From: Candidatus Portnoybacteria bacterium CG_4_9_14_3_um_filter_43_11
GTDB taxonomy: Bacteria > Patescibacteriota > Minisyncoccia > Portnoybacterales > UBA2143
Direction: 5' to 3'
NCBI GenBank assembly: GCA_002791035.1
Contig: PFWG01000009.1
Span: 1 to 36,998, forward strand
DNA: 36,998 nucleotides
The notes below the pieces were generated by a model. The model worked only from the letters and a program-made list of their open reading frames with translations, was not told the DNA's origin and made no database searches. Every line of letters begins with the position of its first letter. The stretch's first letter is position 1. A program made the translations under genes and the position numbers. Below, in pieces: positions 2,651-24,573 of the stretch.

Positions 2651-3322
2651 ATGGCAAAAAACAAACCTAAAATTATTATCCTTCTTGGCCGATCGGGAAG
2701 CGGCAAGGGAACGCAAGCCAAACTCTTAATTGATGACTTTGGTTTTGACTATTTAGGCACCGGCGATCTGCTTAGGGAAAGAGTGAAAGAAAATGATTTT
2801 TCCGGGAAAAAACTTAAACAGGAGATGGATAAAGGCGAAAGGGTTTCAACTTATTATGTTTTTCAGCTTTGGGGCAAGGCCGCCGAAAAGATAAAAGAAA
2901 AACCAAATTTAAAAGGAATTATTATTGACGGCAGCCCCCGTTCTCTTTTGGAAGCGGAGTTAATGGATGGCCTTTTGGATTGGTACGAGTGGGAAAATAT
3001 TAAGGTAATTCTAATTGATATTTCCCCCCAAGAGGCCTTTGACCGACTGACTAAAAGAAGAATGTGTAAAATGTGCGGCCGGCTGATTCCTTGGGTTGGG
3101 ACTTTTAAGGATTTGAAGGTCTGCGACCAATGCGGCGGAGAATTAATAGAGAGAGCCGATGACGCCCCGGCGGCAATTAGAAGAAGAATGGATTATTTTA
3201 AAAAAGACGTTGAGCCGGCGATAGAGTATTACCAGAAGCGGAAAAGATTGATTGAAATAGACGGCGAGCAGTCGATTGAAGACGTCTATCGTAATGTCAA
3301 AAAGGCCGTTTCAAAGGTATAG
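2651..3322 (+). CDS. adk: Adenylate kinase with a zinc-lid
   Basis: P-loop GRSGSGKGTQ, a LID with CKMCGR...CDQCGG, and the canonical position after secY. Confidence 0.93.
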   Translation: MAKNKPKIIILLGRSGSGKGTQAKLLIDDFGFDYLGTGDLLRERVKENDFSGKKLKQEMDKGERVSTYYVFQLWGKAAEKIKEKPNLKGIIIDGSPRSLLEAELMDGLLDWYEWENIKVILIDISPQEAFDRLTKRRMCKMCGRLIPWVGTFKDLKVCDQCGGELIERADDAPAAIRRRMDYFKKDVEPAIEYYQKRKRLIEIDGEQSIEDVYRNVKKAVSKV

Positions 3323-17602: not shown

Positions 17603-18526
17603 CTAGGATTTTGCCAAGTCAGAAAATAAGGTTTTAAGCCCGGCGGTATTTAACCAATAATTCTTTGGATTTTTCTTTAAGTATTTTTTGATTTCTTTTC
17701 TTTGTGTTTTTAGTTTATCGCCAGCCCTGCTGTTGGATATGAGTATATTTGAATAACTGCCGTCTAAAAAAGAGATGTAGGAAATATTTGGAGTTTTTTC
17801 CTTGAGATTTAATATTTCAATTAGTTCTGAAATCTGCTTATCTTGTCCGCCGCCGGAGGTGTTAAGATGTTTTGCTTCTATTAAAAATATCTTATTTTTA
17901 TACCTAATAATCAGGTCTAATTTTTTACCTTGCTTTTTGGCTTTAAGTTTAACTTTTAAATTTTCTTTGACTTTTTTAACGCTGAAAACCTTGGAAAATT
18001 GAGCAACGCATTTGTTTGATTTATTAAATTCTTCCCAAGTTTTAACTTCTTTAAAACCCAATTTCTTTAATATCAAGGTTAGTTTTAATTCGCCGCATTT
18101 TCCTTTCTTGCGAGAGGAATTAGAATCTATTATTGCCTGAATCCATTCTTCGGGGACGAGGTCTCTTAACAATCTTTTAGAAAAGTATCTCCGGGTAATT
18201 TTCTTTATTAAGTCCAAATCTTTTCTGACCGCGCCCAAGGTATTATCGCAGGCGTTAACGAAACAGATAAATTCGGAGCAGTTGGAAAATTCCGATAATG
18301 ATTTTTGCAATTCTTCAAAATACTTGTTGATTATTTTTGGATTTTCTTTTTTCTTTTGAAGAGTTTTAATGGTAGTTAAAATTTCCTTGATCTCTTTTGT
18401 ATTTTTGACATATTTTTTCAGATTAGGATTTTTATTGTCAAAAATATAAAAATTATCCAAAGAAGTTTCTGGATTTTCCTGCGATACTTTAAAGTAATGT
18501 TGATTGTTTTGAATGTTTTTGCTCAT
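17603..18526 (-). CDS. Putative type II restriction endonuclease (PD-(D/E)XK-like)
   Basis: It overlaps and follows the methyltransferase gene. The candidate catalytic pattern is GEL...KKLDLIIRYKNKIFLIEAKH (D...ExK). The gene is very AT-rich and lysine-rich. Confidence 0.55.
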   Translation of the reverse strand: MSKNIQNNQHYFKVSQENPETSLDNFYIFDNKNPNLKKYVKNTKEIKEILTTIKTLQKKKENPKIINKYFEELQKSLSEFSNCSEFICFVNACDNTLGAVRKDLDLIKKITRRYFSKRLLRDLVPEEWIQAIIDSNSSRKKGKCGELKLTLILKKLGFKEVKTWEEFNKSNKCVAQFSKVFSVKKVKENLKVKLKAKKQGKKLDLIIRYKNKIFLIEAKHLNTSGGGQDKQISELIEILNLKEKTPNISYISFLDGSYSNILISNSRAGDKLKTQRKEIKKYLKKNPKNYWLNTAGLKTLFSDLAKS

Positions 18527-19628
18527 AGAGATAATTCAAAAATTTATAGGTAAAATCAAACGAAATTCTTTTGCGGCCGTTATCGCGGAAATTAGTGAGA
18601 AAAAATGAAAAATATTTTTTTCTGTTTTGGTTTAACTTCTGGTTGAATTCCTGTATTAGTTTTTCCTGCTCTTCCACGGGAATTCCCTGGCCGAAAATTA
18701 TATGGGCCATATTTCGAGAAGTATTTTTACCAACAAGCCCTAAAATATTATATCTTCTTATATCTTCAAGTTGTATCTTTTTTCCGTTCTTGCTGTCAAT
18801 GGCTCTTAAGAGCAAGATATTTCTTTCTAAAATATTTCTAACATTTCCATGGATATTATAATTTCTTATTTCCTTTATATTTTGAAACGCCATTTTAGCT
18901 CCATAACTTCCAGATTTCAGAAAATCTTCAGTCAGGCGGAAAATTTCTAAATAATTTTTAGCGCTTTTTATCTGATTAATAAAATTGCCGCCTAACTGCC
19001 AGCCGAATTTTCTTTCTATAGCAAAATTGATTTTTTCTTTTTCTGGGAATATGGCAGCTGATATTTTGTTTTTACCATCAAATCCTTTTTTCTTCTTGTA
19101 ATAAAAAGAAATTACATTATAGGTCGTATCTTTAAAAACTTGTTGGGAAAAAACATTTAACTTAATAATCTTAAACTTTTCAAAAAATAGGTTCCTGATT
19201 TTTTTTGAATTTTCGGCGCAAAGAAAATTTAGAGGAACAATTAAAATTCCTTCTTCGGAATCAAGAATTGAATAGATAGAAACTTGATATAGGTCTTCGA
19301 AAAAGGAGTGTGTGCCGGAAAAGAAATTATCTTTTGTTTTTCCATCGGCTTTATTCTTATGCAGATATGGCGGATTGGTTAAAACAAATTTATATTTCTT
19401 CGGAGAATTGATAGAGTCGTTGTAAAAAACCTTTTTGTTGTCGGTATATTTTTTATCACAGTCAAAGCCGGTGATTTTTTTACATTTATTTTTGCTAGCC
19501 CAACTAAACAAATCCTGATTTCCGGCGAATGGATCAGTAATTTCTTTATTCTTTACGAATGATTCTAGCCCTTGGAGAATATAGTCGGAATTTGTAGTAA
19601 AGAATTGTCCGAGTTGGGCTTTGGTCAT
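18489..19628 (-). CDS. N6-adenine DNA methyltransferase (gamma-type motif order)
   Basis: The motif order is LGQFFTT (motif X-like), then DPFAGNQDL (motif I), then LTNPPY (motif IV). Confidence 0.85.
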   Translation of the reverse strand: MTKAQLGQFFTTNSDYILQGLESFVKNKEITDPFAGNQDLFSWASKNKCKKITGFDCDKKYTDNKKVFYNDSINSPKKYKFVLTNPPYLHKNKADGKTKDNFFSGTHSFFEDLYQVSIYSILDSEEGILIVPLNFLCAENSKKIRNLFFEKFKIIKLNVFSQQVFKDTTYNVISFYYKKKKGFDGKNKISAAIFPEKEKINFAIERKFGWQLGGNFINQIKSAKNYLEIFRLTEDFLKSGSYGAKMAFQNIKEIRNYNIHGNVRNILERNILLLRAIDSKNGKKIQLEDIRRYNILGLVGKNTSRNMAHIIFGQGIPVEEQEKLIQEFNQKLNQNRKKYFSFFLTNFRDNGRKRISFDFTYKFLNYLYEQKHSKQSTLL

Positions 19629-20376: not shown

Positions 20377-20380
20377 AAAG

Positions 20381-20454
20381 TAGCGGCGACAGGATTCGAA
20401 CCTGTGACATCGGGCTTATGAGTCCCGCGCTCTAACCAACTGAGCTACGCCGCC
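20381..20454 (-). tRNA. tRNA with CAU anticodon (elongator Met or Ile2), no encoded CCA
   Basis: The reverse complement folds as GGCGGCG-UA-GCUC..GAGC-G-CGGGA-CUCAUAA-GCCCG-AUGUC-ACAGG-UUCGAAU-CCUGU-CGCCGCU-A. It has a G1-U72 wobble and an A31/G39 mismatch. Confidence 0.8.
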
Positions 20455-20455
20455 A

Positions 20456-21145
20456 TCATTTTATTTTTAAATTAGATATTCCTTCAATCCAGCCGTCTAT
20501 TTTTCTTCTTAGTCGAGTTCCTTTCCGGACTTTTATTCTTAGGGTTCCAAAATGTTCGTTATAGTTTTCGTAAATTTTTTTTGTTTCTGTCTTTTTTAAA
20601 CTTGGTTTATTGAACTGCGATAGGGGAATCTCCGTAAGATCGGACCAATATTTTTCTACTTCCTTTACTCTTTTTTTATGAATCTTGTTAATTCCCACTC
20701 TAAGAGAAAACCTATCGATGCTTATTTTGCAACAATTTTTGAACCATTCGAGCATAAAAAGAATCATTTTCGGATCTGAATTAGTAAATCCAACGTCATA
20801 ATTAGACGGAGCAGTATATCCTTCACTCCAATACATTGCTATTCCAGCAACAAGTAAATCTCTTTTATTAAGTTTATCGATTTCTTTAATGCCCTCTTTT
20901 CTTAATAACTCTACTTCCGTTTGTCTTTTTTGTCTTATTTTTTCTACCGCCCTTAATCTTCCTTCGTAACTTCCGGATATTTGTTTTTCCACTAATCGTT
21001 TAATCTGAGTATGCGAAAGTGGTATATCTCTACACCATACGCTAACAGTGCCCTTAGAGATATTTATCTTTTGAGCAATTTCATTGATACTCAATCCTCT
21101 TTTGCGTAACTTTTGCGCTTTAGTCTGTTCCTCTATCTTCGCCAT
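20456..21145 (-). CDS. HTH domain protein with a LAGLIDADG-like C-terminal domain (putative free-standing homing endonuclease or maturase-like)
   Basis: The N-terminal HTH is RGLSINEIAQKINISKGTVSVW. LLVAGIAMYWSEGY resembles a single LAGLIDADG motif. The gene is AT-rich and sandwiched between tRNA genes. Confidence 0.5.
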   Translation of the reverse strand: MAKIEEQTKAQKLRKRGLSINEIAQKINISKGTVSVWCRDIPLSHTQIKRLVEKQISGSYEGRLRAVEKIRQKRQTEVELLRKEGIKEIDKLNKRDLLVAGIAMYWSEGYTAPSNYDVGFTNSDPKMILFMLEWFKNCCKISIDRFSLRVGINKIHKKRVKEVEKYWSDLTEIPLSQFNKPSLKKTETKKIYENYNEHFGTLRIKVRKGTRLRRKIDGWIEGISNLKIK

Positions 21146-21197
21146 TTTAGAACCTTATATTATTAGGCACATTAACATTATATATGAGGTTCTAAAA
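21145..21197. promoter_or_regulatory. 16-bp inverted repeat overlapping the start of the HTH-LAGLIDADG-like ORF (candidate operator or tRNA terminator)
   Basis: TTTTAGAACCTTATAT (21145-21160) pairs with ATATATGAGGTTCTAAAA, specifically 21182-21197, with one G-T pair and a 21-nt loop. The loop contains TATATAAT on the minus strand. Confidence 0.45.
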
Positions 21198-21235: not shown

Positions 21236-21515
21236 TTGCGGGGGTCGGATTCGAACCGACGACCTCGAGGTTCTTAATATTAGCCATTTGTTGCCAAATG
21301 GAATGGACTGTCCCATTCTCTCGCTAATTTAACGAGAGATTCCCATTACAGTCTCTGAACCTTTCCCGTAGTTAATACGGGACTTGGCTGCTGATTGTCG
21401 TAAATATATCTTTACGAGTTCCCAGCAAGTTCGGGAATTTTTCCGCAGAATGTCGCCATCCTGGGCCACAATCATTTTATGGGCCTCGCGAGCTGCCAGA
21501 CTGCTCTACCCCGCG
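21236..21515 (-). tRNA. Initiator tRNA-fMet (CAU) gene interrupted by a group I intron; exons 21479-21515 and 21236-21272
   Basis: The joined exons give CGCGGGG-UA-GAGC-AGUCUGGCA-GCUC-G-CGAGG-CCCAUAA-CCUCG-AGGUC-GUCGG-UUCGAAU-CCGAC-CCCCGCA-A (74 nt). This is nearly colinear with E. coli tRNA-fMet, including the C1xA72 mismatch. Confidence 0.85.
21273..21478 (-). ncRNA. Group I intron (206 nt, no ORF) inserted after the CAU anticodon
   Basis: The 5' exon ends in U and can pair as CCAU with the internal guide GUGG 9 nt into the intron, giving a U-G wobble at the splice site. The intron ends in G. Core-like strings CAAUCAGCAGCCAAGUCCCG and GGUUCAGAGACUGUAAUGGGAA resemble the conserved P/Q and J8/7-P7 regions of tRNA group I introns. 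Size and insertion site resemble the Azoarcus tRNA-Ile intron. Confidence 0.75.
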
Positions 21516-21520
21516 CTGGT

Positions 21521-21549
21521 ATTATAGCCGAAAGTTTCAGAGATATCAA
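21521..21549 (-). promoter_or_regulatory. Sigma70-type promoter of the tRNA-fMet gene (TTGATA-17 nt-TATAAT)
   Basis: The minus strand reads TTGATAtctctgaaactttcggcTATAATaccag followed by tRNA position 1. The -10 box ends 5 nt before the mature 5' end. Confidence 0.6.
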
Positions 21550-21614: not shown

Positions 21615-22004
21615 ATGAATTTATCCGGATATTTAGCGGGATTAGTTTTAGTGGTCTTTTTAGCCATCGCCTGCTTGACGGCTATTTTAGTTTATTTCAG
21701 TCCCCAGACCTCCAGCGCTGGCGTCTTTTCTCTGTTTTATCTGGCGCTTCTGATTTCGGCGGCGGGGATATTTACTTTAATCGGATTTTTTATTCGGCAG
21801 ATTTCAAGAAAAAAAAGGATTCCTTTGTCCCAAGGACAGGTTGTCCGCAATCTGGAGGTTTCTTTCCGGCAGGGTTTTCTTTTATCAATAATTTTGGTTT
21901 CGGTTTTAATCCTTCAAAGCCAGCGATTGCTTTACTGGTGGGATCTGGCGGCTTTGGTCGGGCTGGTCGGTCTGGCTGAATGGTGGCTGATGAAAAGGCA
22001 ATAG
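21615..22004 (+). CDS. Hypothetical integral membrane protein (about 4 TM)
   Basis: 129 aa and strongly hydrophobic (LVLVVFLAIACLTAILVYF, LFYLALLISAAGIFTLIGFFI and others). It lies immediately upstream of pheS. Confidence 0.6.
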   Translation: MNLSGYLAGLVLVVFLAIACLTAILVYFSPQTSSAGVFSLFYLALLISAAGIFTLIGFFIRQISRKKRIPLSQGQVVRNLEVSFRQGFLLSIILVSVLILQSQRLLYWWDLAALVGLVGLAEWWLMKRQ

Positions 22005-23307: not shown

Positions 23308-24573
23308 ATGAAAAATAATTTAGTCAAAATTCGTAAAGAAACGGATTATTATCTGGCGTATTTTAATGAATTAAGAAAACTGATCCCTGTTAATTATATC
23401 GGCTCGATAATCATTGATAGTTTCTTTAATAAAAGGTTTTCTATCCGGGAAATTCAAAATTTCATCAGACAAAACGGCAGAAGATATAATCTTTCGTCAA
23501 AAGATATTCAAATCTTTCTTCGACAAATCCAAGACGAACTTATTTTAGCGCCCCGGGGGAATGTTCGTTTATATCAAAGGGAATTGAGCGCTCCAATAGC
23601 GGTTGAAATTGAGATAACTACCCGATGTAATTTAAGGTGTAAGCATTGTTGTATTAAGAAATATGATAAATTGATGTCAATCAATAGAATTGAACGCATT
23701 TTTAAATTATTAAATGAAAAAAGAGTTTTTGAAATTAGCTTAGCCGGAGGAGAGCCCTTTGTTCATCCTCAAATTCTAGATATTCTTTCGTTATGTGAAC
23801 AATATAACTTCGCTACAATTATAACGACTAACGCTACACTCTTGAGCGAGTCTTTAATTAAAAGATTGGCTGAATTTAAAAATTTGGCTTTCGTCGTAAG
23901 CTTAGAAGGGATTGATAGGACTAACGACATAATCAGAGGGAGGGGCGTTTTCAAAAAAGTAGACCAGGCCGTTAGAAACCTTAAAAAAAACGGTATCTAT
24001 GTTGAAATATCTTCGACAATTACCGAGGAAAACATAGACCGCTGTCGAGAATTAGTGGAATATACTAAGTCCTTAGATATCTTTTGTAATTTCAATTTAT
24101 TTAAACCCTTTAAGAAAGATCATAAACCGTATATTCTTGGGCCCAATAAATATTTTAAATTTATAGAAGATCTATTTGAGGAAAGGAATTTTTCTGGGGC
24201 AAAAGTTAATTTGCCAAACGCCGGGGCTATTTTCGCTTATTTAGAAGGACAAGAAAAATGTAATGAGTGTTATGCGATTATGTGTGCTTTTACGATTGAT
24301 GTGGAAGGGAGTATAGTCCCTTGTCCCGCTCTTCAATCCGCCGGTTATTATGATGAAATCTTCTTGCCGAAATTCGAGGAAAATTTTATAGATATTTGGA
24401 AGAATAATCGACATTTTCAAGATTTTCGCAAAGGAAATTTAAGAGAATGTCGAGCGCGTTCATATATATTCAATAGGAATATAAAAAGGAATGATCCTTA
24501 TGGGATAACTGCTTTTCTGAGATACCAAAAAGCGAAAAGTCAAGAAGTAAAAAATAAGCTACTTAATTCTTAA
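23308..24573 (+). CDS. Radical SAM enzyme with an N-terminal PqqD-like RRE and a C-terminal SPASM/twitch-like Cys cluster (RiPP maturase-like)
   Basis: The CxxxCxxC cluster is TTRCNLRCKHCC and the GGE motif is LAGGEPF. The first ~85 residues (VKIRKETDYYLAYFNELRKLIPVNYIGSIIIDSFFNKRFSIREIQNFIRQ...SKDIQIFLRQIQDELIL) match the PqqD/RRE pattern. The C-terminal Cys pattern is CNECYAIMC-x7-GSIVPC ... C. Confidence 0.85.
   Translation: MKNNLVKIRKETDYYLAYFNELRKLIPVNYIGSIIIDSFFNKRFSIREIQNFIRQNGRRYNLSSKDIQIFLRQIQDELILAPRGNVRLYQRELSAPIAVEIEITTRCNLRCKHCCIKKYDKLMSINRIERIFKLLNEKRVFEISLAGGEPFVHPQILDILSLCEQYNFATIITTNATLLSESLIKRLAEFKNLAFVVSLEGIDRTNDIIRGRGVFKKVDQAVRNLKKNGIYVEISSTITEENIDRCRELVEYTKSLDIFCNFNLFKPFKKDHKPYILGPNKYFKFIEDLFEERNFSGAKVNLPNAGAIFAYLEGQEKCNECYAIMCAFTIDVEGSIVPCPALQSAGYYDEIFLPKFEENFIDIWKNNRHFQDFRKGNLRECRARSYIFNRNIKRNDPYGITAFLRYQKAKSQEVKNKLLNS

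Follow-up and report, generated by a model that had tools for sequence, protein, structure and literature searches.

An initiator tRNA gene interrupted in its anticodon loop

Can a bacterium with a minimal genome keep the gene of its initiator tRNA behind a ribozyme step? The question is raised by a locus on contig PFWG01000009.1 of Candidatus Portnoybacteria bacterium CG_4_9_14_3_um_filter_43_11, a tiny groundwater bacterium of the Parcubacteria group within the Patescibacteria group (candidate phyla radiation, CPR). We analyzed a stretch of 36,998 nt (positions 1 to 36,998 of the contig), here called the window. An original prediction, made from the letters of the window, had proposed that an initiator tRNA gene is split after its CAU anticodon by a 206-nt group I intron. 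This proposal was supported by a covariance-model match, by covariation among homologues, and by the integrity of both exons. The locus is very probably a functional initiator tRNA gene in which a compact group I intron without an open reading frame (ORF), probably of the IC3 (Azoarcus-like) type, separates U36 from A37 in the anticodon loop.

The split gene lies on the minus strand, as do all features of the gene and its intron described below; coordinates refer to the window. The 5′ exon (21479..21515, 37 nt, CGCGGGGUAGAGCAGUCUGGCAGCUCGCGAGGCCCAU) comprises the acceptor strand CGCGGGG, the D arm with GAGC/GCUC (A11:U24), and the anticodon stem strand CGAGG, followed by C32 C33 C34 A35 U36, and thus ends in ...GGCCCAU. 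The 3′ exon (21236..21272, AACCUCGAGGUCGUCGGUUCGAAUCCGACCCCCGCAA; AACCUCG...CCCCGCAA) supplies A37 A38, CCUCG, AGGUC, the T arm GUCGG-UUCGAAU-CCGAC, CCCCGCA, and A73. Between them lies the intron (21273..21478, 206 nt), which starts with AAAAUGAUUGUGGCCC and finishes with UAAUAUUAAG, its last base being G. When the exons were joined, ARAGORN folded them into a 74-nt tRNA-Met(CAU) with a C1xA72 mismatch, a D stem GAGC/GCUC, and the loop CCCAUAA, in agreement with the tRNA reconstructed earlier. CCA is not encoded, as had been noted; A73 is followed by CAA. Applied to the window itself, ARAGORN did not see the split gene and called nearby only tRNA-Asp and an elongator-type tRNA-Met.

A sigma-70-type promoter precedes the gene (21521..21549), with the −35 box TTGATA at 21549-21544, a 17-nt spacer, and the −10 box TATAAT at 21526-21521. 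It matches the consensus at 11 of 12 positions, and its final base (21521) falls 5 nt short of C1, exactly where a canonical promoter had been predicted to stop. At homologous loci, too, the −10 box nearly always ends 4-6 nt ahead of tRNA position 1, whether the gene bears an intron or not (window 21516-21526; loci L125-L145, L166-L172, and L004; individual loci are numbered with an L where they need to be told apart). Given the position of the −10 box, transcription would be expected to start at, or within 1-2 bases of, the mature 5′ end of the tRNA. The precursor may therefore be almost leaderless and may need little or no cleavage by RNase P.

Detection and structure of the intron

With permissive filters, the Rfam model Intron_gpI (RF00028) matched positions 21488-21284 with 71.3 bits, well above the gathering cut-off of 50 (E = 3.5e-18 when only the local stretch was searched, 2.4e-16 window-wide), bearing out the group I assignment. 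It was the only group I intron found in the whole window under these settings. At gathering thresholds with default speed filters, a search of the whole window missed the same 71-bit intron. The intron has a G+C content of ~45%. Folded alone, it reached a minimum free energy of −72.9 kcal/mol (z = −5.7 vs dinucleotide shuffles), and the minimum free energy structure independently held P2, P3, P4, P5, P6/P6a, P8, and P9.

The complete set of helices, P1 to P10, could be assigned. P1 is formed with the internal guide sequence GUGGCCC (21463..21469) as its 3′ strand: G21469 makes a wobble pair with U36 at the 5′ splice site, and the next guide bases pair U with A35, G with C34, and G21466 with C33. 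The two U residues at 21470-21471 are able to pair with A37 A38 as P10. P2 is the hairpin CAGGAUG-GCGA-CAUUCUG (21446..21463) with a GNRA loop. The 5′ strand of P3 (21438-21432), J3/4, and the P4/P5 domain together occupy 21389..21438, as placed by the Rfam alignment, an alignment of 17 homologues, and the minimum free energy structure; P4 pairs 21427-21422 with 21394-21389, and P5 is the hairpin 21417-21398. P6/P6a (21359..21388) consists of GCCAAG, the hairpin UCCCGUA-UUAAC-UACGGGA, and AAGGU. The 5′ strand of P7 (GAGACUGU, 21355-21348) contains a bulged A and is followed by the 3′ strand of P3 (UGGGAAU, 21345-21339) and by the P8 hairpin CUCUCG...CGAGAG (21318..21338). The 3′ strand of P7 (ACAGUCC, 21305..21311) closes the P3/P7 pseudoknot with its guanosine-binding helix. 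P9 is the hairpin CCAUUUG-GCAA-CAAAUGG (21284..21301), again with a GNRA loop, and the intron ends with the terminal guanosine (omega-G) at 21273.

This architecture is IC3-like: ~200 nt in an anticodon loop, without P2.1 or P5abc, and with GNRA loops on P2 and P9. From the architecture and the core strings, rather than from a subgroup-specific model, we infer that the intron belongs to subgroup IC3.

Covariation among homologous introns

An exon-anchored core pattern identified 21 metagenome loci with a homologous intron of 196-241 nt at the same site. Further homologues were reached independently via a neighbouring ORF (see below), bringing the total to more than 30 at this site in CPR/Patescibacteria assemblies. 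The exon pattern skips alleles with a G-U pair in the D stem, but these were recovered by Rfam and nhmmer; nhmmer with a profile built from the alignment described next recovered all of the ORF-reached loci. Against RF00028, homologous introns scored 70-89 bits.

Seventeen sequences were aligned with MAFFT (alignment A1), and the P1-P10 structure was written onto it from the Rfam alignment and the sequence. Standard pairs were formed by 92.8% of the cells, compared with 32-45% when the 3′ partners were slid by 1-3 columns, and none of 500 column shuffles reached the observed pairing values. Both sides had changed in 33 of the 63 pairs (117 cells). Compensatory changes were present in nearly every pair of P2 (7/7 pairs, with 99% of cells paired), P6a (7/7), P8 (5/6), and P9 (5/7). 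P7 was paired in 100% of the cells; its pair G21349-C21310 is private to the window and is A-U in the 16 other sequences.

The helix that joins intron and exon was informative as well. The first three pairs of P1 (the U-G wobble, A-U, and C-G) were invariant in all 17 sequences. The following pair, between position 33 and the guide, was C-G in 15 of the 17 and U-A in the other two (L126 and L134, with the guide GUGACC instead of GUGGCC). This switch from C33-G to U33-A sets the register of P1 as CCAU:GUGG. The register given by the Rfam alignment (GGCCCAUAA with UUGUGGCC) was rejected as unsupported, since only CCAU:GUGG explains the change.

The hallmarks listed in the original prediction thus held up: the 5′ exon ends in U (the U36-G wobble being invariant, 17/17), the last intron nucleotide is G (G21273, alignment column G243, 17/17), the pairing of GUGG with CCAU is fixed by the covariation at position 33, and the core-like strings correspond to strings of the Azoarcus ribozyme (see below). 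Comparison of the homologues shows, by the covarying pair at position 33, that the intron tracks its host exon. Covariation of the helices together with the pairing of position 33 to the guide argues that the intron is under selection as a ribozyme and that C33 is real. At the level of sequence, these patterns establish the exon and intron boundaries as well as selection on the predicted group I fold and on P1 pairing.

Proposed splicing pathway

On this basis, gene expression would proceed as follows. The sigma-70-type promoter, ending 5 nt upstream, would start a nearly leaderless precursor, in which the intron would adopt the P1-P9 fold, including the P3/P7 pseudoknot and the GNRA loops of P2 and P9. 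The last four bases of the exon, C33-C34-A35-U36, would pair with the guide GUGG, leaving the U-G wobble at the splice site, and exogenous guanosine would cleave after U36. The terminal G (21273) would then enter the P7 site, and the exons, aligned by the short P10 (A37 A38 with UU), would be ligated. The predicted product is a 74-nt tRNA with C1xA72, A11:U24, and the loop CCCAUAA, which would still need 3′ trimming and CCA addition. The intron is presumably catalytic and may splice self-sufficiently in vivo.

C33 in initiator tRNAs

The spliced anticodon loop reads C32 C33 C34 A35 U36 A37 A38, so that the tRNA would carry C33, as originally proposed. L004, an intron-less relative with 65% PheS identity, has an uninterrupted initiator gene in the same gene order with an identical anticodon arm (CUCGCGAGG-CCCAUAA-CCUCGAG). 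C33 is therefore not an artefact of mis-set intron boundaries; the comparison of these genes shows it to be a trait of the lineage.

The original prediction had further stated that C33 is otherwise characteristic of eukaryotic cytoplasmic initiators. This statement did not survive a scan for C33 initiator 5′ halves (pattern C/A/U1, GAGMAG, CUCG, RGG, CCCAU) with one genome per species and groups assigned by record title. The scan gave at least 120 matches, from which three chance matches were removed, and it revealed that C33 initiator-type genes are widespread in prokaryotes (at least about 115 genes). Among the matches listed, they occurred in Patescibacteria (~20), DPANN archaea (~26), Elusimicrobia (~10), Planctomycetota (~11), and Bacillota plus Mycoplasmatota (~21), as well as in Nocardia (actinobacteria) and others. 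The Bacillota/Mycoplasmatota group spans Leuconostocaceae, Erysipelotrichia, and Mycoplasma and includes cultured Weissella, Leuconostoc, Convivina, and Eupransor. Reviews describe C33 as typical of many eukaryotic initiators and bacteria as having U33 (PMC5041475, PMC8887486). As judged from these gene sequences, the scan shows that generalisation for bacterial initiators to be too narrow.

A group I intron was found in none of the ~115 C33 initiator genes among the matches listed; even within this class of initiators the intron is a minority state. Four C33 initiators of DPANN archaea (L006, L040, L054, and L072) contained insertions beginning after CCCAUAA, which are probably archaeal endonuclease-type introns.

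Comparison with known tRNA introns

A group I intron in cyanobacterial initiator tRNA-fMet genes was reportedly described by Biniszkiewicz et al. in 1994; its site is presumably the same place in the anticodon loop, after CAU. The Portnoybacteria intron resembles the cyanobacterial tRNA-fMet introns in its host gene, its group I chemistry, and its patchy spread among relatives. The tRNA-fMet intron of Synechocystis PCC 6803 is 655 nt long and encodes internally the PD-(D/E)XK homing endonuclease I-Ssp6803I (PMC1995217). In contrast, the Portnoybacteria intron has 206 nt and no ORF, resides in a CPR genome, and interrupts an exon with C33.

Azoarcus tRNA-Ile carries an IC3 intron of 205 nt. As in the pre-tRNA-Ile(CAU) of Azoarcus sp. 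BH72, the intron measures ~200 nt and follows a U in the anticodon loop, and it has the same set of helices without P2.1 or P5abc and with GNRA loops on P2 and P9. The two were compared string by string, since a global pairwise alignment put the cores out of register and was set aside. With the Azoarcus sequence (PMC8890501), the intron shares core strings around J3/4-P4, P6, J6/7-P7, and J8/7-P7′, the corresponding strings in the window and in Azoarcus being GAACUUGCUGGGAAC vs CAAAUUCGGCGAAAC, CAGCCAAG vs GAGCCAAG, AAGGUUCAGAGACU vs AAGGUGUAGAGACU, and ACAGUCCA vs AUAGUCCA. The introns differ in their host tRNA and in base composition, with ~45% G+C here and a G+C-rich sequence in Azoarcus (PMC8890501).

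Within the same host phylum, group I introns are frequent in the tRNAs of CPR genomes and conceal these tRNAs from detection (Lui et al. 2021; PMC8172020), a general phenomenon that explains why tRNA finders miss such genes. The arrangement is thus already known in kind from cyanobacterial tRNA-fMet, Azoarcus, and CPR tRNA introns, and the Portnoybacteria case is a well-supported new example. A 2025 preprint by Nakagawa et al., to go by its title, reportedly treats the same phenomenon in the same host phylum.

A protein-coding cassette beside the intron-bearing gene

About 90 nt past the tRNA begins an ORF of 229 aa (20456..21145, minus strand) with an N-terminal helix-turn-helix and an alpha/beta C-terminal domain to which no known fold could be assigned; the NCBI annotation gives it as 178 aa (PJA64121.1, locus tag CO160_00290). 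It forms a cassette between tRNA-fMet and tRNA-Met and has more than 250 CPR homologues of ~228 aa. In tblastn searches, homologues adjoined an intron-bearing initiator in most of the homologous loci. The family was located in the window and in L125, L128, L129, L134, L139, L140, L144, L146, L156, L166, L168, L170, L171, L104, L082, and L009. The ORF is associated with the intron; a role in the mechanism of the intron would be hypothetical.

One explanation extends the reading of a functional split gene: intron and ORF may form one composite mobile unit, in which the ORF encodes a free-standing homing endonuclease or else some other factor for mobility or splicing. The target of this product would lie in or beside the uninterrupted tRNA gene, and the intron would ride along and protect the host gene ("collaborative homing"). 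We regard this as possible, with the balance of evidence tilting somewhat against it.

The distribution of the cassette speaks for such a unit. When look-ups were started from the ORF, an intron-bearing tRNA(CAU) gene lay immediately upstream in all six cases. Tallied over distinct cases, the ORF stood beside an intron-bearing tRNA gene in 16 of 18. Neither intron nor ORF was present in L004, with its same gene order, and ~35 intron-less CPR initiator loci also lacked the ORF. The remaining two of the 18 cases point the other way, with the ORF beside intron-less tRNA genes (L009 and a second copy in L143), as do at least seven loci that keep the intron without the ORF. Moreover, the co-occurrence counts are inflated by shared ancestry and synteny.

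Three close relatives exhibited clean presence or absence of the cassette. L133, L140, and L144 have identical exons and introns that are 96-99% identical. L133 lacks the ORF, and its next tRNA follows after an 18-nt spacer; in L140, a cassette of ~730 nt occupies the spacer, with flanks of 99.4% and 100% identity; L144 carries, in the same place, an ORF allele with 45% protein identity to that of L140, followed by a different tRNA-Met. The association also recurred with a second host tRNA. In a second lineage (L104 and L082), the initiator gene is intron-less, and the next gene is a tRNA-Phe(GAA) with a related group I intron, followed directly downstream by an ORF homologue (25-27% identity) and tRNA-Pro; their relative L089 has the same tRNA cluster without the ORF. 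The tRNA-Phe(GAA) introns (L104:1262-1578 (+), L082:~1640-1960 (−), and L089:~2990-3210 (−)) lie between U33 and G34, form P1 as GGACU:GGUCC, and gave Rfam scores of 82.7 and 79 bits. ARAGORN did not see these split genes either.

The signals in front of the ORF fit the same picture. It has its own promoter (21205-21177, minus strand; TTGATA at 21205-21200, TATAAT at 21182-21177, 17-nt spacer, 11/12 consensus matches), whose −10 box is nested in a 9-bp inverted repeat (21147..21195, minus strand; left arm UUAGAACCU at 21195-21187, right arm AGGUUCUAA at 21155-21147). A single nucleotide separates the right arm from the start codon, and across loci this arm covers the Shine-Dalgarno sequence or the start codon. 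In 13 loci, 92.8% of the cells of the two arms were paired, with compensatory changes in six of the nine pairs. Read-through transcripts from the tRNA promoter would carry both arms, and transcripts from the internal promoter only the right arm. The repeat could act as a hairpin that hides the ribosome-binding site on read-through RNA; it could also be a palindromic operator. A plain autoregulated transcription factor is a possible alternative identity for the ORF product.

A search for a nuclease in the 229-aa ORF was negative: Pfam, NCBIfam, and PHROGs gave a helix-turn-helix only, and no LAGLIDADG, GIY-YIG, HNH, His-Cys, PD-(D/E)XK, or EDxHD domain was recognisable. A profile search of the PDB had no match, and Foldseek matches of an AlphaFold2 (AF2) model (mean confidence score pLDDT 85) in PDB and BFVD did not go below E 0.09. 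A Pfam match to 2CompART at E 0.03 is below any threshold. LAGLIDADG was considered for the motif 'AGIAMYWSEG...GFTNSD' and rejected, since there was no Pfam match and no LAGLIDADG structure in Foldseek, and hhalign against a LAGLIDADG_3 neighbour gave a probability of 0.1. These results count against the ORF as a homing endonuclease. Among viral contigs, neither the split gene nor relatives of the ORF were found.

Recognisable homing-type genes do occur close by. In relatives (Nealsonbacteria-like and Parcubacteria), other spacers of the same tRNA cluster hold free-standing genes for LAGLIDADG_3 (L146:2323-2940 (+), 205 aa) and GIY-YIG (L167:2519-2782 (+), 87 aa), which lends the composite unit some support; homing-type genes seem to use the tRNA cluster as a landing zone. 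Free-standing homing endonucleases that act with ORF-less introns include F-CphI beside the cyanophage psbA intron and the seg/mob genes of phage T4, and in homing-endonuclease genes of T4 the promoter lies within a hairpin that masks the ribosome-binding site. Like these, the ORF would be a mobile gene in a spacer beside an intron-bearing gene, with presence or absence, divergent alleles at one site, and a hairpin-nested promoter. Unlike these, it has no recognisable nuclease fold and sits in a chromosomal CPR context without relatives on viral contigs. By this analogy, the ~228-aa helix-turn-helix family of Parcubacteria might be a new, structurally unassigned class of free-standing homing or mobility gene that works with ORF-less tRNA group I introns. 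The intron would split or shield the target in an essential tRNA gene, the ORF would drive the spread of the entire segment, and its expression would be gated by the hairpin hiding the ribosome-binding site on read-through transcripts. We consider this specific proposal speculative and rather unlikely as it stands.

Is the spliced product the initiator?

Whatever the part of the cassette, the reading of a functional initiator gene split by an autonomous ribozyme has to be weighed against several points. P1 is short, with four solid pairs followed by a C x C mismatch. P10 consists of only two invariant A-U pairs and, as it never varies, cannot be tested by covariation. The co-occurring downstream protein gene could mean that the intron is not entirely self-reliant in splicing or maintenance. 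Finally, bacterial initiators typically have three consecutive G-C pairs in the anticodon stem, and this tRNA has two, position 29:41 being A29-U41. The same A29-U41 arm is found in the intron-less L004 and in many CPR genes and is the norm of the clade; initiator function therefore is still the best reading.

Could the split gene instead be a decaying copy, while an uninterrupted initiator tRNA gene at some other place in the genome serves initiation? The DNA inspected amounts to 37 kb plus the overlapping 33-kb contig L001, which leaves room for a second copy; within these two contigs no second initiator gene was found. Decay is hard to reconcile with exons that are intact and fold as a canonical tRNA, with a conserved promoter, and with intron helices and exon-guide pairing that are kept by compensatory changes across more than 17 lineages. 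The syntenic place is also kept (GatCA, small ORF, tRNA-fMet, tRNA-Met, tRNA-Asp, PheS), and the only visible initiator of L004 is located there. A decaying copy is therefore very improbable. The proposed dependence of translation initiation on self-splicing would presuppose that this is the sole initiator gene.

A second alternative, slightly less probable still, is that the tRNA is an elongator tRNA-Met or a tRNA-Ile2 with modified C34. The two consecutive G-C pairs of the anticodon stem would suit either, as would the U at position 1 of several homologues, which could form a weak U1-A72 pair. The tRNA nevertheless bears the marks of an initiator: C1xA72, A11:U24, G30-C40, and G31-C39. Position 1:72 lacks a Watson-Crick pair in the window, position 1 being C, A, or U in homologues, and the 5′ half fits a bacterial initiator pattern drawn from more than 100 species. 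Furthermore, a separate elongator-type tRNA-Met(CAU) with G1-C72 adjoins directly downstream (20380-20454), within a conserved cluster fMet-Met-Asp between gatCA and pheS. The spliced tRNA would thus most plausibly serve as the initiator.

An assembly chimera or sequencing artefact, conceivable for a metagenome-assembled contig, has next to no likelihood, as the identical split-gene arrangement recurs in three further, independent assemblies of the same organism from different projects (L001-L003) and more than 30 homologous loci are known.

Some relatives carry an initiator subclass with unusual tRNA architecture (L125, L127, L135, L137, L139, L004, and L009). Its D loop is short and lacks GG (GAGA-AGUAGUA-UCUC), its variable region has 4 nt, and its T loop reads UGCAAYU in place of UUCRAAU. 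The G18/G19-U55/C56 contacts that normally make up the elbow would be changed in these tRNAs.

Genomic context

The neighbouring PheS shares 99% identity with proteins of three groundwater-metagenome contigs, the ones with the identical split gene (L001-L003). Among named organisms, its nearest relatives (58-65% identity) belong to Nealsonbacteria, Minisyncoccales, and Parcubacteria. The tRNA promoter and pheS are separated by a 129-aa membrane-like ORF (21615-22004), and a radical-SAM/SPASM gene (23308-24573 (+)) lies between pheS and pheT, which are adjacent in L004. An island of low G+C content (17603-19628 (−); 30% vs 39-49% in other 2-kb blocks) contains a DpnII/Tsp45I-like restriction endonuclease gene and an overlapping 379-aa ORF without Pfam matches, which probably encodes a methyltransferase. 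In the near-identical contig L001, the endonuclease gene of this island is split into pieces of 152 and 131 aa.

Implications for CPR bacteria

Standard tRNA finders and default Rfam searches miss the split gene, so that CPR genomes of this clade look as if they had no initiator tRNA. Completeness checks and studies of tRNA repertoires should therefore search for split genes. The data also run counter to the common view of C33 initiators as a trait of higher eukaryotes. Should the downstream cassette prove to be a gene for homing or mobility, the few engines that move group I introns would gain a new protein family, and the patchy distribution of tRNA introns among CPR bacteria would have an explanation. 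For the organism itself, the locus suggests that an essential and probably single-copy gene of a minimal genome is kept behind a ribozyme step.

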